This document shows positions 1 through 6,892 of a stretch of DNA of 6,892 nt, in pieces. The notes under the pieces were generated by a model. It had not been told where the DNA came from, searched no databases, and was given only the letters and a program-made list of their open reading frames with translations. The DNA comes from a virus (taxonomy: Duplodnaviria > Heunggongvirae > Uroviricota > Caudoviricetes): positions 1 through 6,892 of the IMG/VR virus record IMGVR_UViG_2695420617_000001. One strand, 5' to 3'. Positions within the stretch are counted from its first letter, which is position 1, and each line of letters begins with the position of its first letter. Made by a program: the position numbers and the translations under genes.

Positions 1-1461
1 ATTAGTAAGTGTCTTCGCCAGGAAGTCGAAAGAATCCTCGCGAGGCAATAACTTCAGGTCGTACTCACTCATTTGCTGATCAGAAAGCGGGGTATCGTAA
101 GTAGCAATGCCGTAGCGTGCATATTCATAATACGGGTCACCTTCATCAGGGCGCGGCAGAATTGCTTTGTTACCTTCAGGTATTGCGCCAGGGGCCGCCG
201 GACGCATTTGCAGGGCATATCGATATTCACCTACAGAGACTTCTGGTTCAGGCGAAGAGCTACCGGTATCCTCCGCTGGTTCAGGTTCGACGTTTTCCGG
301 TTTATGTTCTTCTGGTTGGACCAGGTATTCCGATACATTACCCGCTTTATAGGCTTTAAACAGCTTGCCGATCGCATCTGCCATGTCCACACCCTGTATG
401 GATTTAGCCTTGATCATGTACACGCTGCCATCCGAATCGGTTAACTGGATATACCCTTCGCCGTCCTCAATGAATTGCTTCATTGATGCACCATTACTGA
501 GCGTCACTTCCCCGTTCATATGCATACGATTTTTGATACTGGCAAGGCGATCCGTCATCGCGCGAGAGTGTCCACCAGTCGTCCCCGCAGGAGCAATGGT
601 ATCGCGCCCACCAGTGCGATTGAGCTGATCAATCTCCGTCTGCAAACGCTCATTCTCTTCATAAAGAGAATCCGCTTCCGATGCAACAGCGTTAATTTTC
701 TGCTCCAGATCTACCTTCTGCCCTTCTACCGCTGCCACCTGATCCACGAGGTCGCTCATGGCATCCTCTTTCTGGTCACTATCAGCCTGTAGTTGGGTTA
801 TTTCATCAACAAGGGCTTTTTTCTTCTTCTGCGCACGCTGAAATTTTGCCGAGTTTTTCTCTGCAAGGTTGGCAAGTTTCATGGTGACCTGCGCCAGCGT
901 CATATCACGTCCACTCATCGGAGCAACGGTGTGAGTAACGTCTTTTTTATTCAGTAAGAACTGGAAAGCAACCAGCGTATCGCTATTGGTGATCCGGTTT
1001 TCCGCTGTCGGGCTATGAAACAGAATGCTGATAGTCTGACCATCACTGAGCGGAATAATGGCTGGCAGGACCGGCAGCCCGTTAACGTTACGTGCCCGGC
1101 CAATTTCAGCACCGCCGATCGCGCGCGCGCCGCTCTGGGCCACATCCCCCGTTTTATCACTCCCCGCAGAGATTCCGGTACCATTCAGCTTCTGGTTCAA
1201 TGCCCGGACAAATGCCTGCATGGTCCGGTGTAACTGCAAACGAGTAGAACTAATCGCCTCCAGTAAATCCGTAGCACACCAGTGGATCGGCGTGTCATAG
1301 AAGAACGTAGCCTCGATTTCCTCCAGGGTGTTGGATTCCGTCATCAGATAGCGGTCCTCACCGGCCATTAATGCGCGATATTCATCATCAGTCACTGGCG
1401 GGGGAAGCACGTCAAGCCCAGGCTTGATCGTCACCCCTTTATTGATATTGAACTGTTCCAT
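1..1461 (-). CDS. Large structural/antirestriction-type protein, DarA-like (P1 dar operon); partial, C-terminal part lies beyond the window start
   Basis: Hand translation of the minus strand gives one uninterrupted frame from ATG (complement of 1459-1461) to position 1, about 487 codons, beginning MEQFNINKGVTIKPGLDVLPPPVTDDEYRALMAGEDRY. An AGGAA Shine-Dalgarno sits 7 nt upstream. It is missing from the ORF track only because no stop occurs inside the window. The many short plus-strand ORFs at 73-1300 are antisense shadows. It shares the motif TL..V....A.KNSAKFQ followed by a coiled-coil with the upstream 203-aa ORF. The DarA name rests on recalled P1 gene order and the Hdf paralogy, not on a search. 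Confidence 0.6.
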   Translation of the reverse strand, partial: MEQFNINKGVTIKPGLDVLPPPVTDDEYRALMAGEDRYLMTESNTLEEIEATFFYDTPIHWCATDLLEAISSTRLQLHRTMQAFVRALNQKLNGTGISAGSDKTGDVAQSGARAIGGAEIGRARNVNGLPVLPAIIPLSDGQTISILFHSPTAENRITNSDTLVAFQFLLNKKDVTHTVAPMSGRDMTLAQVTMKLANLAEKNSAKFQRAQKKKKALVDEITQLQADSDQKEDAMSDLVDQVAAVEGQKVDLEQKINAVASEADSLYEENERLQTEIDQLNRTGGRDTIAPAGTTGGHSRAMTDRLASIKNRMHMNGEVTLSNGASMKQFIEDGEGYIQLTDSDGSVYMIKAKSIQGVDMADAIGKLFKAYKAGNVSEYLVQPEEHKPENVEPEPAEDTGSSSPEPEVSVGEYRYALQMRPAAPGAIPEGNKAILPRPDEGDPYYEYARYGIATYDTPLSDQQMSEYDLKLLPREDSFDFLAKTLTN

Positions 1462-1462
1462 G

Positions 1463-2065
1463 TTAATTTCCTGCTTTCAGTTGCTTAAGACGGCGTTTGA
1501 GTTCGCCATTTCGGGCCTTTTCGTTATTGAGTCGGCCGGTATCCTTATCCAGCTTCGCCCGCAAATCAGTGATCTGCTGTTGATGGAAAGACACCGAGTT
1601 CTGCGCTGATTTATAAGCGGCAACCACCTGAGCATTCCGCTGTTTTGCCTCTTGCAGGCGCTGAAAGTTGGATTTTACTGCCGGTTTCTTGTCTACCGGA
1701 TTGGCAACACGTTTCGCTTTGGCGATCAGTGATTTCTGGAATTTTGCGGAGTTTTTGCGGGCCGCTTGCCCCATGACGGTACCAAGCGTCTTGATATCCG
1801 GCGACTGAGCGTTAGGAATAGCTTTTCCATTCAGCCTCACAGACGATATATCGCCAGTATCGTTTACCTGTATGGCAAGAATTTGTCCGTCGTTAAGAAC
1901 CAGCTTTGCGGTTTTAACTTTAACGCCATCTTTCGTTGTTGCGCGGTTGCTGGAGTCAACCTCAATTACCGTAACACCGGTTTTATTGATCGCCGCGATA
2001 AGGGATTTCAGCCCCTTTTCATTAACCTGGTCAAAATCGACCGTTGCATACTTATTTTTCGTCAT
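1463..2065 (-). CDS. Hdf-like protein (homolog of DarA fragment), paralogous to the downstream large ORF
   Basis: Track ORF 1463..2074 (-). I prefer the second ATG (2063-2065), which has AGGA 8 nt upstream; the first ATG at 2072-2074 has no SD. Stop TAA at 1463-1465 is 1 nt from the next gene's ATG (TAAcATG). Lysine-rich C-terminal coiled-coil. Shares KNSAKFQ and flanking residues with the large ORF at 1-1461. Confidence 0.6.
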   Translation of the reverse strand: MTKNKYATVDFDQVNEKGLKSLIAAINKTGVTVIEVDSSNRATTKDGVKVKTAKLVLNDGQILAIQVNDTGDISSVRLNGKAIPNAQSPDIKTLGTVMGQAARKNSAKFQKSLIAKAKRVANPVDKKPAVKSNFQRLQEAKQRNAQVVAAYKSAQNSVSFHQQQITDLRAKLDKDTGRLNNEKARNGELKRRLKQLKAGN

Positions 2066-2495
2066 CTGACACATCCTGTGCGAGATTTATTACGTAACTT
2101 CTGCGGATTTGCTGAGTAACAGGGAAAATCCGATACAACGGGTTAATGAACGAGTCGCCATGCGTAACCATGACGTTGAAATGCCACAGCCGTTCTCCTT
2201 TACCCATATATTCAGTGGGTATGTACAACCATTCACTGTTTTCGCCCTGTTCAGCCGACGTCAAACAACGTTGTTCGCCTTCAATCACTGTCGTTGGCTT
2301 CTGAACATCGCGGATCCAATATCTGACCGTTGCGCCGCGCAAAAACGGGAATTTAGACCGGTATTTGAACGGCACCCGGATGAAACCCGGTTTAATTTCC
2401 ACATCACCAAGTTCTAAATGCGTGATGTCCTTGCGTTTTAGCAAATAGCGATCGGCTAAGGCTAACGCAAGAGCGCATACACCCCAGCCAATCAT
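2052..2495 (-). CDS. Putative antiholin/lysis regulator (LydB-like), N-terminal signal-anchor
   Basis: 147-aa ORF with hydrophobic N-terminus MIGWGVCALALALA. Its ATG overlaps the stop of the upstream holin-like gene in an ATGA arrangement (2492-2495), indicating translational coupling. Assignment is by position after a holin and recalled P1 lydA-lydB order; no search done. Confidence 0.45.
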   Translation of the reverse strand: MIGWGVCALALALADRYLLKRKDITHLELGDVEIKPGFIRVPFKYRSKFPFLRGATVRYWIRDVQKPTTVIEGEQRCLTSAEQGENSEWLYIPTEYMGKGERLWHFNVMVTHGDSFINPLYRIFPVTQQIRRSYVINLAQDVSDDEK

Positions 2496-2821
2496 TTCCC
2501 ACCTCCCTTTTTCACCAAACTTGTAAGAACATTCAGAATGCTATCGATATTCACTCGTTTCATCCCTGAAATCACCTCATGACCGTTATTGCTGGCTATC
2601 GTTACCATTAAGTACGTAATTGATAACTCCCAGCCCTCGTGTTGCCCCAATAGGTACGCCACCGCGCCAGCTGTCACTGCAACAAAGATCTCCGTAACCA
2701 ATCCCAACAAATTGCCAGACTGGCGACCGTCTCGGACATCCATCAGGAACGTGCCTATCCCACCAATTACTGAAAGCAGGAGCGCAATAGCAACTGGAGC
2801 TAATTCCTGTGTGTCAAGCAC
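2492..2821 (-). CDS. Holin-like membrane protein (LydA-like)
   Basis: 109-aa ORF with GTG start (complement of 2819-2821) and a strong AGGAGG SD 6 nt upstream. Two to three predicted transmembrane segments (LAPVAIALLLSVIGGIGTFL, LLGLVTEIFVAVTAGAVAYLL) and a short charged C-terminal tail (KKGGGK), as is typical of holins. Confidence 0.6.
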   Translation of the reverse strand: MLDTQELAPVAIALLLSVIGGIGTFLMDVRDGRQSGNLLGLVTEIFVAVTAGAVAYLLGQHEGWELSITYLMVTIASNNGHEVISGMKRVNIDSILNVLTSLVKKGGGK

Positions 2822-2895
2822 AAGTTCCCTCCTACGTTGTCAGGAGGTAATGGTATGCAAAGTAACTTCTCAACCGGTTATGTTGCATAAGAGAC

Positions 2896-3159
2896 TTACC
2901 TATTCAACCGACTTTTGGAACCTTCAATAATAAGCCTGCTATTGGCGCTGAAAATAAGAACCATGCAGCTCTGAAGGCTTTCATTCATGTCCTTATATTC
3001 CGCGAGATACATGCCAATAAAGCCAGCAAGTACGGCGGAAATACATTCGGCCAGCAATTTCTTGCATGAGGACTCGTAACGGTTTTCACATAGCCCACTC
3101 AAATACGAATACACCCCACCAAGAAGGGATAACATCACGATATGTACATAAAATGTCAT
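2896..3159 (-). CDS. Small hypothetical membrane protein (87 aa), first gene of the minus-strand operon
   Basis: ORF with ATG at 3157-3159 and a weak AGGT SD. Two hydrophobic stretches (VHIVMLSLLGGVYSYLSGL, LLAECISAVLAGFIGMYLAEY). Same strand as the lysis/dar genes. Function unknown. Confidence 0.4.
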   Translation of the reverse strand: MTFYVHIVMLSLLGGVYSYLSGLCENRYESSCKKLLAECISAVLAGFIGMYLAEYKDMNESLQSCMVLIFSANSRLIIEGSKSRLNR

Positions 3160-3286
3160 TTTTTACCTATACAACAGTAAGTTGAACAACATTTGAGAAC
3201 GGTATGCACTTTGTGATTTCCACACACACTGGTTTTGTTAATTAAAACCTGTAGCTTGCAATAAATAACGATAGTGGGCAGAAAAT

Positions 3287-3472
3287 ATGCTAATAGGCTA
3301 TGTACGCATATAGACAAATGAACAAAACACAGCTATGCAGTGAAAAGCACTTGAAAGCGCAGGATGTGAGCTAATTTTTGCGAATAAGGCGAGCAGCAAA
3401 AAGGCTGGGCACCCTAGTTTAAAAAAGGTTCTGCGTATGCTTTCCAGAGGTGATACCCTAGTCTCGGACTAG
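3287..3472 (+). pseudogene. Decayed 5' remnant of a Cin/Gin-type serine invertase gene (two in-frame stops, 3' part deleted)
   Basis: Plus-strand translation from ATG 3287: MLIGYVRI*TNEQNTAMQ*KALESAGCELIFANKASSKKAGHPSLKKVLRMLSRGDTLV, then unrelated sequence. This aligns over about 59 codons with the intact invertase in this window (MQIGYIRVSTNDQNTDLQRNALNCAGCELIFEDKISGTKSARPGLKKLLRTLSEGDTLV), with TAG at codon 9 and TGA at codon 19. Homology ends at 3463, exactly at the left arm of a palindrome. Confidence 0.75.
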
Positions 3473-3474
3473 GG
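3456..3474. repeat. Perfect palindrome CCCTAGTC-tcg-GACTAGGG at the invertase-remnant breakpoint
   Basis: Arms 3456-3463 and 3467-3474 are exact reverse complements with a 3-nt spacer. The left arm is the last recognisable invertase codons (ccc tag tc = ..T L V). No flanking T-run on either strand, so it is not a typical intrinsic terminator. Confidence 0.7.
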
Positions 3475-3594
3475 ACAACATTTCGAGGACAGTTTTCATT
3501 AGCGGTCAGCAGGCGCTAGATACATCGAATTGATGTGCCGCGCGATAAATGTACCTATTCTATCAAGATAAATTACACCGACGCGGCATTAGAA

Positions 3595-4167
3595 TTACAG
3601 CTCAGATTGAGTTTGGCGCTTCTCTACAGGATGATAACGATAAATCGTCGATACACCGATATCGTAAATAATTGCCAACTGTTTCCTGCTGTAGCCATTT
3701 TCGATCAACCTCGCTATTTGCTCATGTTGTTCTTTTGTCAACTTCGGGCGACGTCCGCCAATGCGTCCCTGTTCGCGTGCAGCTGCCAGTCCGGCCAGTG
3801 TTCTCTCAACAATTAATTCACGTTCCATTTCTGCTAAAGCACCCATGACATGAAAAAAGAAACGCCCCATGGGTGTTGATGTGTCAATACTGTCTGTCAG
3901 ACTACGGAAATTAACACCTTTTTCCCGCAACTCCTCTATAAGCGTGATAAGGTGTTTCATACTTCTGCCAAGCCTATCCAGCTTCCAGACAACCAGCGTA
4001 TCTCCTTCTGATAACGTTCTGAGCAGCTTTTTCAAGCCTGGTCTGGCTGACTTTGTTCCGCTTATTTTATCTTCAAAAATCAGTTCACATCCTGCGCAGT
4101 TCAGTGCATTTCTTTGTAAATCTGTGTTTTGGTCATTTGTTGACACACGAATGTAGCCAATTTGCAT
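3595..4167 (-). CDS. Serine DNA invertase (site-specific recombinase, Pin/Min/Cin/Gin/Hin family)
   Basis: 190 aa from ATG (complement of 4165-4167), with GAGG SD about 9 nt upstream; the track's TTG at 4176 is probably not the start. Hallmark N-terminus MQIGYIRVSTNDQ with the catalytic serine context, then DTLVVWKLDRLGRS, MGRFFFHVMGALAEMERELIVERT, GRIGGRRPKL and a C-terminal helix-turn-helix (GYSRKQLAIIYDIGVSTIYR). Closest by memory to the Pin/Min subfamily. Confidence 0.93.
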   Translation of the reverse strand: MQIGYIRVSTNDQNTDLQRNALNCAGCELIFEDKISGTKSARPGLKKLLRTLSEGDTLVVWKLDRLGRSMKHLITLIEELREKGVNFRSLTDSIDTSTPMGRFFFHVMGALAEMERELIVERTLAGLAAAREQGRIGGRRPKLTKEQHEQIARLIENGYSRKQLAIIYDIGVSTIYRYHPVEKRQTQSEL

Positions 4168-4221
4168 GAAAAACAACCTCTTTGTTTAGTTAAAAATACA
4201 TCGTTGGTATAGGTAGGGATT

Positions 4222-4247
4222 AAGACTAAAACGTTGGTTTGGGGGAA
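4222..4247 (+). other. Invertase crossover site 1 (26 bp: 12-bp half-sites flanking a 2-bp core), boundary site next to the invertase gene
   Basis: AAGACTAAAACG-TT-GGTTTGGGGGAA. The inner AAAACG/xx/GGTTT pattern matches hix/gix/cix-type sites (for example hixL TTCTTGAAAACC-AA-GGTTTTTGATAA). It lies about 55 bp upstream of the invertase start. Confidence 0.7.
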
Positions 4248-4706
4248 GGCTCAGCATTGCCTGTTGGCGTGCCTGTTCCGTGGCCCTCAGCCACTCCGCC
4301 AACGGGGTGGCTGAAATGCAATGGTGCAGCATTTTCTTCTGAAAAGTACCCAAATCTGGCAAAGGCTTACCCTACTAATAAATTGCCGGATCTACGGGGC
4401 GAATTTATTCGCGGCTGGGATGACGGGCGGGGGATTGACTCTGGCCGTAATTTATTATCTGCACAGAATGATGCAATTCAGAATATTGTTGGTTCTTTCG
4501 GGCGTACTCAGCTTTTTAGAGATGTACTTAGTTCAGGGCCATTTAGTCAACATGGTCAAGTATTATCTACAGGCCTAAAGGAAACGGAAATTATTGAGGG
4601 TTATGGCTCTTATAACTGGACATTCGACGCCTCTCGCTCAGTTCGTACAGCATCTGAAACCCGTCCCCGTAATATTGCATTTAATTACATCGTAAGGGCG
4701 GCATAA
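4236..4706 (+). CDS. Tail fibre C-terminal cassette A (start-codon-less gene segment, silent in this configuration)
   Basis: Open frame from the right half of site 1 to TAA 4704-4706: GLGEGSALPVGVPVPWPSATPPTGWLKCNGAAFSSEKYPNLAKAYPTNKLPDLRGEFIRGWDDGRG, a unique core, then ETRPRNIAFNYIVRAA. The collar-like LPDLRGEFIRGWDDGRG motif is typical of phage tail fibres. No ATG or RBS; the track's M is a TTG. Confidence 0.8.
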   Translation, partial: GLGEGSALPVGVPVPWPSATPPTGWLKCNGAAFSSEKYPNLAKAYPTNKLPDLRGEFIRGWDDGRGIDSGRNLLSAQNDAIQNIVGSFGRTQLFRDVLSSGPFSQHGQVLSTGLKETEIIEGYGSYNWTFDASRSVRTASETRPRNIAFNYIVRAA

Positions 4707-4725
4707 AAACGTTGGTTTAGGGGAA
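4700..4725 (+). other. Invertase crossover site 2
   Basis: GGCATAAAAACG-TT-GGTTTAGGGGAA, same orientation as site 1. The left half-site contains the TAA stop of cassette A. Confidence 0.75.
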
Positions 4726-5175
4726 GGCTCGGCGCTGCCCGTTGGCGTGCCTGTTCCGTGGCCCTCCGCCACACCACCAACGGGGTGGCTGAAATGTAAC
4801 GGAGCAGCATTTTCTTCTGAAAAGTACCCAAATCTGGCAAAGGTTTACCCAACGTTAAAATTACCTGATTTACGCGGTGAGTTTATCCGTGGTTGGGATG
4901 ATGGGCGAGGTGTGGATGCGGGAAGGGTCATCTTAAGCATACAGGGGTGGTTAACAGGAAGTCATTATCATAATATTCGGTCATGGGACGCGTGGGATAA
5001 CACGGTATTGGTGCCAAATGACAGAGGGGGGGATAGTCTGTTGTCGACAGATAACGCCGTCCAAGAAGGAGCGATTAATGGTAAATTTACCAGTCAATAC
5101 AGAACGGAGTTATCTGGGGGGAATGAAACCCGCCCACGTAACATTGCCTTCAATTATATTGTGAGAGCAGCATAA
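4714..5175 (+). CDS. Tail fibre C-terminal cassette B (start-codon-less), translationally coupled to tfa
   Basis: The frame is open from site 2 (GLGEGSALPVGVPVPWPSATPPTGWLKCNG...); the track begins at an internal GTG at 4747. Unique core WLTGSHYHNIRSWDAWDNTVLVPNDRGGDSLLSTDNAVQEG. Ends ETRPRNIAFNYIVRAA with TAA overlapping the tfa ATG (TAATG at 5173-5177). Confidence 0.8.
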   Translation, partial: GLGEGSALPVGVPVPWPSATPPTGWLKCNGAAFSSEKYPNLAKVYPTLKLPDLRGEFIRGWDDGRGVDAGRVILSIQGWLTGSHYHNIRSWDAWDNTVLVPNDRGGDSLLSTDNAVQEGAINGKFTSQYRTELSGGNETRPRNIAFNYIVRAA

Positions 5176-5786
5176 TGGATAATGCGATATTAAATAGCGA
5201 ACTTATAGCCATACAGGCAGGAAACATTATCGTTTATAACTATGATGGTGGTAATCGGGAATATATTTCTGCATCAACTGAATATCTTGCTGTTGGCGTT
5301 GGTATTCCGGCAAATTCTTGTTTGGATGCTCCAGGCTCACATAAAGCAGGTTATGCGATTCTCCGTTCAGAGGATTTAAGTTCATGGGAGTATGTGCCAG
5401 ATCATCGTGGCGAAACTGTCTATAGCATTGACACTGGGAATCCCGAAGAAATCACGGTGTTGGGTGACTATCCGGAAAATACAACCACTATCGCCCCGCT
5501 AACACCATACGACAAATGGGATGGAGAGAAATGGGTGGTTGATACTGAGGCTCAACATAGTGCAGCTGTAGAGGCAGCAGAAACAAAACGTCAGTCATTG
5601 ATTGATACTGCGATGGATTCCATTAGTCTGATTCAGTTGAAATTACGGGCTGGACGGAAGTTGACGCAGGCAGAAACCACGCAGCTTAACTCCGTGCTAG
5701 ATTATATAGACGAGCTGAACGCGATGGATTTAACCACGGCACCAGATCTCAACTGGCCTGAAAAACAACTTTCTACAGCCAGTTGA
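5175..5786 (+). CDS. tfa: Tail fibre assembly protein (Tfa; lambda Tfa / Mu U family chaperone)
   Basis: 203 aa. Recalled lambda Tfa motifs match: IPANS..D.AP, (E/P)DHRG(K/E)TVY, Y(Q/D)KW(N/D)G..WV.DTEA and C-terminal T(S/T)APD(I/L)(E/N)WP. TAATG overlap with cassette B. Confidence 0.9.
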   Translation: MDNAILNSELIAIQAGNIIVYNYDGGNREYISASTEYLAVGVGIPANSCLDAPGSHKAGYAILRSEDLSSWEYVPDHRGETVYSIDTGNPEEITVLGDYPENTTTIAPLTPYDKWDGEKWVVDTEAQHSAAVEAAETKRQSLIDTAMDSISLIQLKLRAGRKLTQAETTQLNSVLDYIDELNAMDLTTAPDLNWPEKQLSTAS

Positions 5787-5791
5787 TATAA

Positions 5792-6298
5792 TTAATCCGC
5801 CCTCACAATATAATTAAATGCAATATTACGAGGGCGGGTTTCTGTACCTACATTTCCACTAATTTCACCATAACGTTTAACACTACGAGAGCTAATAGCT
5901 CGTAGTGAGGAAGGCACCTTATGACCGGGTTCGTCCGTTTTAACTATTCCCCCGTCACCGTATGTAGCTAGTATTCCTGGATTTACGCCTTCCCGTGCAC
6001 TTCCTGCGGCGAGTCCGTCCCCTGTCCATAATTCCATATAGTGTGCATGGTCCAAAATTGTGTGTGGCTGCCAATTAAGCAAAGCGCGGCCAGCATCCAC
6101 CCCGCGCCCATCATCCCAGCCGCGAATAAATTCTCCCCGTAAATCCGGTAATTTATTGGTGGGGTAGGCTTTTGCCAGTTTGGGATACATTTCAGAAGAA
6201 AATGCTGCACCATTGCATTTCAGCCAGCCCGTTGGTGGTGTTTCTAAGGGCCACGGAACGGGCACGCCAACGGGCAATGCTGAGCCTTCCCCCAAACC
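5792..6298 (-). CDS. Tail fibre C-terminal cassette C (start-codon-less, inverted orientation)
   Basis: Minus-strand frame from site 3 to stop (complement of 5792-5794): GEGSALPVGVPVPWPLETPPTGWLKCNGAAFSSEMYPKLAKAYPTNKLPDLRGEFIRGWDDGRG, a unique core, then ETRPRNIAFNYIVRAD. Its stop is 5 bp from the tfa stop (convergent). Confidence 0.8.
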   Translation of the reverse strand, partial: GLGEGSALPVGVPVPWPLETPPTGWLKCNGAAFSSEMYPKLAKAYPTNKLPDLRGEFIRGWDDGRGVDAGRALLNWQPHTILDHAHYMELWTGDGLAAGSAREGVNPGILATYGDGGIVKTDEPGHKVPSSLRAISSRSVKRYGEISGNVGTETRPRNIAFNYIVRAD

Positions 6299-6312
6299 AA
6301 CGTTTTTATGCC
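6287..6312 (-). other. Invertase crossover site 3 (inverted relative to sites 1 and 2)
   Basis: Plus strand TTCCCCCAAACC-AA-CGTTTTTATGCC, which is the reverse complement of GGCATAAAAACG-TT-GGTTTGGGGGAA. It contains the stop codon of cassette D. Confidence 0.75.
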
Positions 6313-6785
6313 GCCCTTACGATGTAATTAAATGCGATATTTCGTGGACGGGTTTCACTCCCGCCAGTATTACCAATACTCCCTCGAGAATGAAGTGTCG
6401 GTGATGGAATCAAATTCCCTCCTGTATTTGAGGCATCAAGCCCCCGTCCTTGTGTGTATGTTTTTTTGAAAATTGTCGCCAGCTCCCATTCATCTTTTGT
6501 GTCGTAACCATCATTGGCTACAACAATATGTCGGTGCTTTTCCAGCATTCCTGTCTGAATGCTCAATAAAGCACGTCCTGTATCAATGCCGCGTCCATCA
6601 TCCCAGCCACGAATAAACTCACCGCGTAAATCAGGTAATTTTAACGTTGGGTAAGCCTTTGCCAGATTTGGGTACTTTTCAGAAGAAAATGCTGCACCAT
6701 TGCATTTCAGCCAGCCTGTTGGCGGAGTGGCTGAAGGCCACGGAACAGGGACACCAACAGGTAATGCAGAGCCTTCTCCCAAACC
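6306..6785 (-). CDS. Tail fibre C-terminal cassette D (start-codon-less, inverted orientation)
   Basis: Minus-strand frame from site 4 to stop (complement of 6306-6308). Same conserved N-module (..AKAYPTLKLPDLRGEFIRGWDDGRG), unique core, then ETRPRNIAFNYIVRAA. Confidence 0.8.
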   Translation of the reverse strand, partial: GLGEGSALPVGVPVPWPSATPPTGWLKCNGAAFSSEKYPNLAKAYPTLKLPDLRGEFIRGWDDGRGIDTGRALLSIQTGMLEKHRHIVVANDGYDTKDEWELATIFKKTYTQGRGLDASNTGGNLIPSPTLHSRGSIGNTGGSETRPRNIAFNYIVRAA

Positions 6786-6799
6786 AACGTTTTTATGCC
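6774..6799 (-). other. Invertase crossover site 4 (inverted relative to sites 1 and 2)
   Basis: Plus strand TTCTCCCAAACC-AA-CGTTTTTATGCC. It contains the stop codon of the partial cassette E. Confidence 0.75.
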
Positions 6800-6803
6800 G
6801 CCC

Positions 6804-6892
6804 TTACGATATAATTAAACGCAATGTTACGAGGACGAATGGTTACATAATTAACCCCATCACCTCGTGAAGGCCCTGCAAATGAAAAACGG
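6804..6892 (-). CDS. Tail fibre C-terminal cassette E, 3' end only (continues beyond the window end)
   Basis: Minus-strand translation of 6892..6804 gives ..RFSFAGPSRGDGVNYVTIRPRNIAFNYIVRAA then stop (complement of 6804-6806). It has the shared C-terminal motif but a different preceding sequence, so it is a fifth distinct cassette. Confidence 0.65.

Follow-up and report, generated by a model that had tools for sequence, protein, structure and literature searches.

Invertible DNA segments that supply alternative 3' parts to a fibre or adhesin gene have been described in several forms. In the C segment of phage P1 and the G segment of phage Mu, the constant 5' part of the S gene is fused to one of two long Sv cassettes, each supplied with a U chaperone of its own, by a DNA invertase of the Din family (Cin and Gin, respectively) that works on two sites and carries an enhancer within its own gene. 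The Pin system of the defective prophage e14 (pinE, stfE/tfaE, stfP/tfaP) also has two sites and one invertible segment, with one tfa for each alternative fibre. Multi-site inversions that permute the C-terminal cassettes of one gene are known from the R64 shufflon, where the tyrosine recombinase Rci acts on sfx sites and the target is the pilV adhesin of the conjugative pilus, and from the Min system of p15B, a P1-like IncY replicon of Escherichia coli 15T- (Sandmeier, Iida, Arber et al. 1990-1992). This article considers a stretch of 6,892 nucleotides of viral DNA (Caudoviricetes; positions 1 to 6,892 of IMG/VR record IMGVR_UViG_2695420617_000001), here called the window, the right-hand part of which contains an array of crossover sites and tail-fibre cassettes beside an invertase gene. 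It is concluded, with a probability of roughly 0.93, that the array belongs to a P1-like (IncY) plasmid prophage and represents the Min multiple-inversion system first described on p15B, here with a repertoire of seven cassettes.

Relationship to p15B Min and other inversion systems

The layout of p15B can be followed through the homology notes on its sequence (X62121) in the P1 GenBank record, which assign nt 1-1712 to S, R and gene 16, 6463-6533 to a stretch matching the cin enhancer, 7147-7408 to a 5' fragment of cin, 7483-7638 to lydC and 7728-8294 to lydA. This order is kept in the window, where homology to P1 stops at position 3463, equivalent to P1 nt ~31836, against P1 nt 31832 in p15B, and, counted from this breakpoint, the p15B interval 6463-6533, for which the P1 record notes 83% identity with the cin enhancer region, falls at window positions 4073-4143. 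This is part of the invertase gene and is homologous to the cin enhancer, and the spacing from the dead cin fragment (psi-cin) to the enhancer is the same as in p15B. As in p15B, the array lies between lydC/psi-cin and S, cin and the C segment have been replaced, psi-cin stands beside an oppositely oriented invertase gene, and one double-ended segment containing tfa is accompanied by single cassettes. Min was reportedly interpreted by Sandmeier in 1992 as the result of substituting Pin-like DNA into a P1-like genome, with which the closest named match of the invertase, PinE, agrees.

The Min system is already known (p15B, 1990-92) and common in databases, and the prototype differs from the present locus only in its repertoire and in one half-site of the pix type. 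p15B has six sites in ~3.5-3.6 kb, whereas seven in ~3.97 kb are predicted for the lineage of the window; two of the window sites are identical to p15B sites over all 26 positions and the others are made largely of p15B mix half-sites, site 4 being of pix type, whereas the p15B half-site ...TATGTG, which belongs to a cassette ending RAT, is absent from the cassette set of the window. In plasmid pMCR_SCKP-LL83, the corresponding 5-kb region has been reported as 99% identical (92% coverage) to p15B min (Zhou et al. 2018, PMC5786510); compared with the window it is 95.4% identical over 80% of the query and has nine sites, with cassettes A, C, D and G among its contents.

The remaining systems share parts of this design. 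Genes of P1 flank the array, and P1 C, Mu G and the window share the principle that a Din invertase joins the constant 5' part of S to one or another 3' part; however, in P1 the cin gene lies on the other strand, whereas in the window cin is dead and a Pin-like invertase is found instead. The single-segment design of Mu G, P1 C and the e14 P segment was considered and rejected on account of four sites, five cassettes, one tfa and the dead cin. With e14 the locus has in common the closest named invertase (PinE), a pix half at site 4, collar cassettes and a Tfa-type chaperone. A shufflon of the Rci type was likewise rejected, the recombinase being of the serine type and the sites of the dix/mix type.

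P2-like prophages of E. coli (loci L005 and L008; Phi2 of strain EC958) carry an identical Tfa, a cassette B that is 96.7% identical at the nucleotide level, an invertase that is 95.8% identical at the amino acid level, and similar sites, so that a switching module containing B and tfa is common to the array-carrying P1-like plasmids and these prophages. The latter differ in being chromosomal, in having a P2-type baseplate and fibre gene H, and in possessing only two sites, which set B-tfa against a lone cassette; in L005 and L008 (9051-11759) the lone inverted cassette is H.

Crossover sites, cassettes and invertase

The 20-nt core TTCCCCCAAACCAACGTTTT occurs four times in the window when up to two mismatches are allowed, compared with 0.01 occurrences expected, and none of 200 shuffled sequences (0/200) contained four. 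The sites (Table 1) are two per orientation and already outnumber those of a two-site design; the near-identical plasmid CP083412.1 has seven. Those of the window were compared with the six mix sites published for p15B (GenBank X62121; Table 3 of PMC3241671). Each site consists of a constant cassette-side half, TTCYCCYAAACC, a central AA, and an outer half that varies with the upstream neighbour, being CGTTTTAGTCTT beside the invertase gene and CGTTTTTATGCC between cassettes, where it also holds the stop codon of the preceding cassette (at site 2, the stop of cassette A). All four sites read TTCYCCYAAACC AA CGTTTT...; the cassette-side half fits dix, and the outer half deviates from dix in the same way as in the published mix sites. 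The cassette-side half of site 4, TTCTCCCAAACC, is the pix half-site of e14; it differs by one base from p15B mix and matches none of the six published p15B mix sites.

The window order is A> B> tfa> <C <D <E, the last cassette being cut by the window edge. The four complete cassettes have ~77 N-terminal residues in common, and also the final 15 (ETRPRNIAFNYIVRA), on either side of 60-75 variable residues, and the shared 5' parts were returned by a repeat finder as direct and inverted repeats of 205-283 nt that are 84-89% identical. The apparent starts of the cassettes in the open reading frame (ORF) list are TTG or GTG codons only, inside or just after a site, and no purine-rich Shine-Dalgarno sequence was found ahead of them; cassette A contains no in-frame methionine codon. 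The possibility that the cassettes are independent genes was rejected on these grounds and since they are in frame only with S. Cassette A is 100% identical at the protein level in L011 (CP083412.1), L014, L016, L019 and L020, cassette B is found joined to the constant S gene in L004, L006 and L011, and the exact protein of cassette D occurs in 61 blocks of the collection, its position within arrays being variable. The available piece of cassette E is 98/98 identical to L001 and L007, and 100% identical to L011, where it is in two parts split by ISEcp1. The tfa gene, which the sequence-only reading did not mention, is a complete gene inside the array with its own ATG overlapping the stop of cassette B. 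It adjoins this cassette and no other, following B directly in 20/20 loci examined, and the exact Tfa protein occurs in 4053 blocks of the collection. Cassette C is read toward tfa and is the second end of the double-ended segment B-tfa-C.

The invertase has the catalytic and HTH_7 domains and the length of ~190 residues that characterize the Din family (Hin/Gin/Cin/Pin/Min). Its Pfam matches are Resolvase (PF00239, E=2e-51) and HTH_7 (PF02796, E=3e-15), the catalytic serine is present (Ser9 in MQIGYIRVS), and residues 1-185 match the Gin structures 4m6f (E=4e-92) and 3uj3, with E about 1e-92. Amino acid identity is 82.8% to PinE of e14, 74.3% to Gin and 74.2% to Cin. The exact protein is on at least 1000 contigs, and the gene is 100% identical at the nucleotide level in seven relatives. 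For comparison, pJIE250-3 (MN510445), which stands in for Min in the literature, is given as 98.5% identical to it (PMC6906374). The enhancer homologue occupies the same position within the invertase gene as the cin enhancer does in cin. Only 54 nt separate the ATG of the invertase gene, which is preceded by a good ribosome-binding site (AAAGAGG), from site 1 (4168-4247, minus strand), and a promoter scan called none for the invertase in 4168-4247. The shortness of this interval implies that the promoter overlaps the site or sits in invertible DNA. Autoregulation has been reported for gin, and such a placement would, by analogy, allow it here.

With regard to the claims of the sequence-only reading, the four 26-bp sites in two orientations and the adjoining intact invertase of the Pin/Min/Cin family were both borne out, the latter by its domains and catalytic serine, and its description of five cassettes lacking an ATG or ribosome-binding site was correct in substance. 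Its preference for the p15B Min type over Mu G or P1 C agrees with the two perfect mix sites, the p15B layout and the breakpoint in psi-cin.

On the mechanism proposed, the invertase would bind the mix sites and cut at the central AA/TT dinucleotide, probably assisted, as are Gin, Hin and Cin, by the enhancer in the 5' part of its own gene and by host Fis, and the DNA between any two oppositely oriented sites would then invert. Each site stands at the 5' end of a promoterless, start-less cassette for the tail-fibre C-terminus, composed of a tail-collar domain, a variable receptor-binding middle and the conserved 15-residue end. Past position 6892, on the minus strand, the constant 5' part of S is expected to end in a site of its own, so that the adjoining cassette would be read in frame and would probably set host range. 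One double-ended segment (B-tfa-C) and five single cassettes would give 1440 arrangements and seven alternative fibres by inversion alone. In the isomer represented by the window, a fusion of S to cassette F is predicted to be expressed and cassettes A-E to be silent.

Table 1. Features of the window, with the array and its invertase first and the flanking genes below
Feature	Position	Strand	Remarks
Min-type serine DNA invertase gene, Din family	3595-4167	-	190 aa, intact; Pfam Resolvase + HTH_7
Recombinational-enhancer homologue	4078-4149	-	58/72 identical to annotated P1 cin enhancer; inside 5' part of invertase gene
Site 1, invertase-proximal	4222-4247	+	Minus-strand reading TTCCCCCAAACC AA CGTTTTAGTCTT; 26/26 to p15B mixMl''L'
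Cassette A, silent tail-fibre 3' cassette	4236-4706	+	156 codons read from within site; Collar PF07484 E=3e-15
Site 2	4700-4725	+	Minus-strand reading TTCCCCTAAACC AA CGTTTTTATGCC; 26/26 to mixMr''N' (also mixO''P', mixP''Q')
Cassette B, silent in the window	4714-5175	+	Collar E=5e-15; weak match to short-tail-fibre receptor-binding domain
tfa, tail-fibre assembly chaperone gene	5175-5786	+	Caudo_TAP PF02413 E=3e-30
Cassette C	5792-6298	-	168 codons; Collar E=7e-15; 100% identical in L011
Site 3	6287-6312	-	TTCCCCCAAACC AA CGTTTTTATGCC; both halves are published mix half-sites
Cassette D	6306-6785	-	159 codons; Collar E=2e-15
Site 4	6774-6799	-	TTCTCCCAAACC AA CGTTTTTATGCC
Cassette E, 3' end, cut by window edge	6793-6892	-	Cluster G, 143 codons in relatives
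darA, partial	1-1462	-	P1 homologue
hdf	1463-2074	-	P1 homologue
lydB	2052-2495	-	P1 homologue
lydA	2492-2821	-	P1 homologue
LPdar, P1 late promoter	2850-2868	-	AAGTTACTTTGCATACCAT; exact conservation, upstream of lydA
lydC	2896-3159	-	P1 homologue
psi-cin, dead cin fragment	3287-3487	+	First ~200 nt of P1 cin, by alignment to P1 cin

Natural isomers and alternative explanations

The IncY plasmid ph681355 (CP083412.1, locus L011), from Salmonella Typhi, matches the window at 99.5% identity over positions 129-4922 and at 99.95% over 4709-6820, and these two matches are in opposite relative orientation with their junction at site 2. Upstream of site 2 the window (the end of cassette A) is identical to L011 upstream of its site for cassette F, and downstream (cassette B) it is identical to L011 downstream of the junction between S and B; a single inversion between opposite sites therefore converts one arrangement into the other. 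The exchange was mapped to the interval from the site core to the first difference between B and F, 55 nt on. L011 has two further cassettes past E, making seven sites in all, and with this plasmid as template the window is predicted to continue beyond position 6892 with E (cluster G), I and F, followed by S fused to F. Cassettes I and F are predicted to be headed by sites of the type TTCCCCYAAACC AA CGTTTTTATGCC, and the last to be joined through ...AA GGTAATYAAGAA to a minus-strand S with Phage_fiber_2 repeats, after which R, gene 16 and bplA are expected; this gives seven sites and seven cassettes for the predicted array.

S, R, gene 16 and baseplate genes come next after the array, on the minus strand, in all syntenic P1-like relatives. 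S (516-974 aa, with Phage_fiber_2 and Collar domains) is fused across an ...AA GGTAATCAAGAA site in at least 12 syntenic relatives, and this outer half is that of mixQ''R'. The reading frame is open across the S junction site (...LNYLGLGEGSALPVG...), and at the sites between cassettes the stop of the preceding cassette lies in a different frame. These relatives support the proposal of the sequence-only reading that the expression site would be found on the minus strand beyond 6892, and the two cassettes past E in L011 extend the repertoire past the five visible, as it had anticipated.

The arrays of 22 loci were split at their sites and the resulting cassettes clustered. Six arrays, namely those of the window, L011, L014, L016, L019 and L020, consist of one set of seven cassettes (A, B, C, D, F, G and I), with the window arrangement completed by prediction. 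Six of the seven are protein-identical in every copy, and G is identical at 138/143 residues in some. These six arrays, which come from independent assemblies, are six distinct signed permutations of the one cassette set, and all of them obey a single rule, that the single cassettes on either side point toward one double-ended B-tfa-C segment, which follows from the half-site anatomy described above. A breadth-first simulation that allowed only inversions between oppositely oriented sites reached 6! x 2 = 1440 states for seven sites and 240 for six, the latter reportedly being the number of isomers published for p15B. The predicted window arrangement is one inversion from L011 and three to five (3-5) from the other four, all within this inversion-only space.

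Permutations of this kind might also have arisen through RecA-dependent homologous recombination between the inverted repeats of the cassettes, which are long, and the sole mapped breakpoint falls within 55 nt that are identical in both partners. That interval, however, starts exactly at the site core, and the cassettes stay whole in all permutations without mosaic junctions. The sites equal experimentally defined mix sites and the intact cognate invertase adjoins them, and in the prophages of E. coli EC958, PacBio long reads show invertase-type switching at very similar 26-bp sites (PMC4134206), so that homologous recombination is considered a very improbable source of the arrangements. Lower still is the likelihood that the window arrangement is an artefact of assembly, whether a chimeric consensus of mixed isomers or a misjoin induced by repeats. 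Such arrays are mixed within cultures and break assemblies (PMC4134206), and the exact arrangement at 99% identity or more is in no record of the ecoli_genomes, phages and plasmids collections; yet it obeys the orientation rule and is one legal inversion from a complete plasmid, and repeats that are only 84-89% identical are resolvable. The suspicion raised with the sequence-only reading, that the cassettes could be fragments of one gene misassembled from repeats, is removed by the recurrence of protein-identical copies in many independent complete plasmids.

It is also conceivable that the array is a fossil, Min-like in structure and no longer switching, or that its fibres are non-functional, for example through an S gene broken beyond the window or a defective prophage. 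CP083412.1 has S in three separate ORFs and ISEcp1-blaCTX-M-15 inserted in one cassette, several cassettes of L001 are frameshifted, and P1-like plasmids with impaired switches have been described (Venturini et al. 2019, PMC6906374). In the window, nevertheless, the invertase gene and the four complete cassettes are all intact ORFs, the invertase gene shows 100% conservation over many plasmids, and six permutations of one cassette set imply recent inversion activity, which together make a fossil improbable.

A Min system capable of switching is accordingly the interpretation preferred here, and several points weigh against it. Switching in this isolate is deduced from permutations among assemblies, and the 55-nt identical interval at the crossover between the window and CP083412.1 is also compatible with homologous recombination. 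S and its site lie outside the window, the expression site being placed by prediction from relatives. The invertase protein is exactly UniRef Q05517_ECOLX, which we take to be the p15B Min entry. Finally, tfa appears to be antisense to the S operon in the window isomer, which would leave the supply of chaperone to the expressed fibre unexplained.

This orientation of tfa is shared by three of the six (3/6) natural isomers. A search of the array for a P1 late promoter to drive tfa was negative, the sole late-promoter match across the window being LPdar, and a sigma-70 scan was uninformative, with 3 matches against 6.9 expected. A literature search on the specificity of Tfa returned nothing directly relevant. 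One Tfa may serve all tips through the invariant C-terminal ETRPRNIAFNYIVRA motif, tips other than B may fold without Tfa, or tfa may be transcribed from the invertase side, perhaps from the cin promoters retained with psi-cin. A single Tfa for all cassettes, or unaided folding, would break with the rule in Mu, P1 and e14, where each tip has one chaperone. The same asymmetry, with one tfa only, is seen in the two-site P2-like prophages that carry the identical Tfa.

The P1-like plasmids L001, L003, L004, L006, L007, L009, L010 and L023 have arrays of between 2 and 9 sites, and their invertase genes are 99.7-100% identical to that of the window (a figure that excludes L023). Variation in size implies that cassettes are gained and lost by events other than inversion. 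In L013 (CP026725.1, 8197-11557), cassette G is present twice and A is lacking, a state that inversion alone cannot reach and that suggests duplication or gene conversion between cassettes. It is possible, though doubtful, that the Min array is best seen as an open-ended cassette library and not as a fixed six-site device, with one Tfa for all cassettes or with the other cassettes folding unaided.

Flanking sequences and significance

The left 3.2 kb of the window consists of minus-strand genes that are 95-99% identical to those of phage P1 and P1-like phages, and the right half is matched best by non-mobilizable plasmids of 95-100 kb from E. coli, Salmonella and Klebsiella, which are P1-type phage-plasmids and IncY where typed. 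Judged by its gene order, darA-hdf-lydB-lydA-lydC, the window is derived from a P1-like IncY phage-plasmid. The psi-cin fragment, also unmentioned in the sequence-only reading, has stop codons at codons 9, 19 and 62 (translation MLIGYVRI*TNEQNTAMQ*...), and the cin promoter region is conserved upstream of it (~3190-3286); the retained cin promoters face the array and are antisense to the active invertase gene. psi-cin keeps 62/72 positions of the cin enhancer (3305-3376), and the locus therefore has two enhancer-like sequences. Approximately 130 nt without assigned origin (3464-3594) separate the end of P1 homology from the invertase stop codon, and a weak terminator-like hairpin (3575-3589, minus strand) follows directly after this stop.

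Insertions are present at several of the related loci. In L011, the ISEcp1-blaCTX-M-15-wbuC unit (~11110-14158) lies in cassette E/G, 22-28 nt from the stop (window 6815-6820), and is flanked by a TAAAC target duplication; the same cassette is uninterrupted in the window. In L016, blaCTX-M with ISEcp1 and IS1 adjoins S, and tnpB insertions of the IS200/IS605 family are found beside ddrA in L006 (17215-18363), L007 (380-1588) and L009 (2818-3966).

Host-range switches of this textbook kind occur in a very common family of phage-plasmids of E. coli and Salmonella, and the value of the locus as a discovery is small. The modest new descriptive result is a census of arrays with 2-9 sites, in which one set of seven cassettes occurs in six permutations that obey the inversion rule. 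For annotation, the 'phage tail protein' genes with TTG or GTG starts that PGAP calls at this locus are silent 3' cassettes and not genes, and for assembly, the heterogeneity of arrays within a culture yields alternative contigs. P1-like plasmids carry blaCTX-M-15 and mcr-1, and the range of hosts to which they can be transduced would depend on which cassette is expressed.

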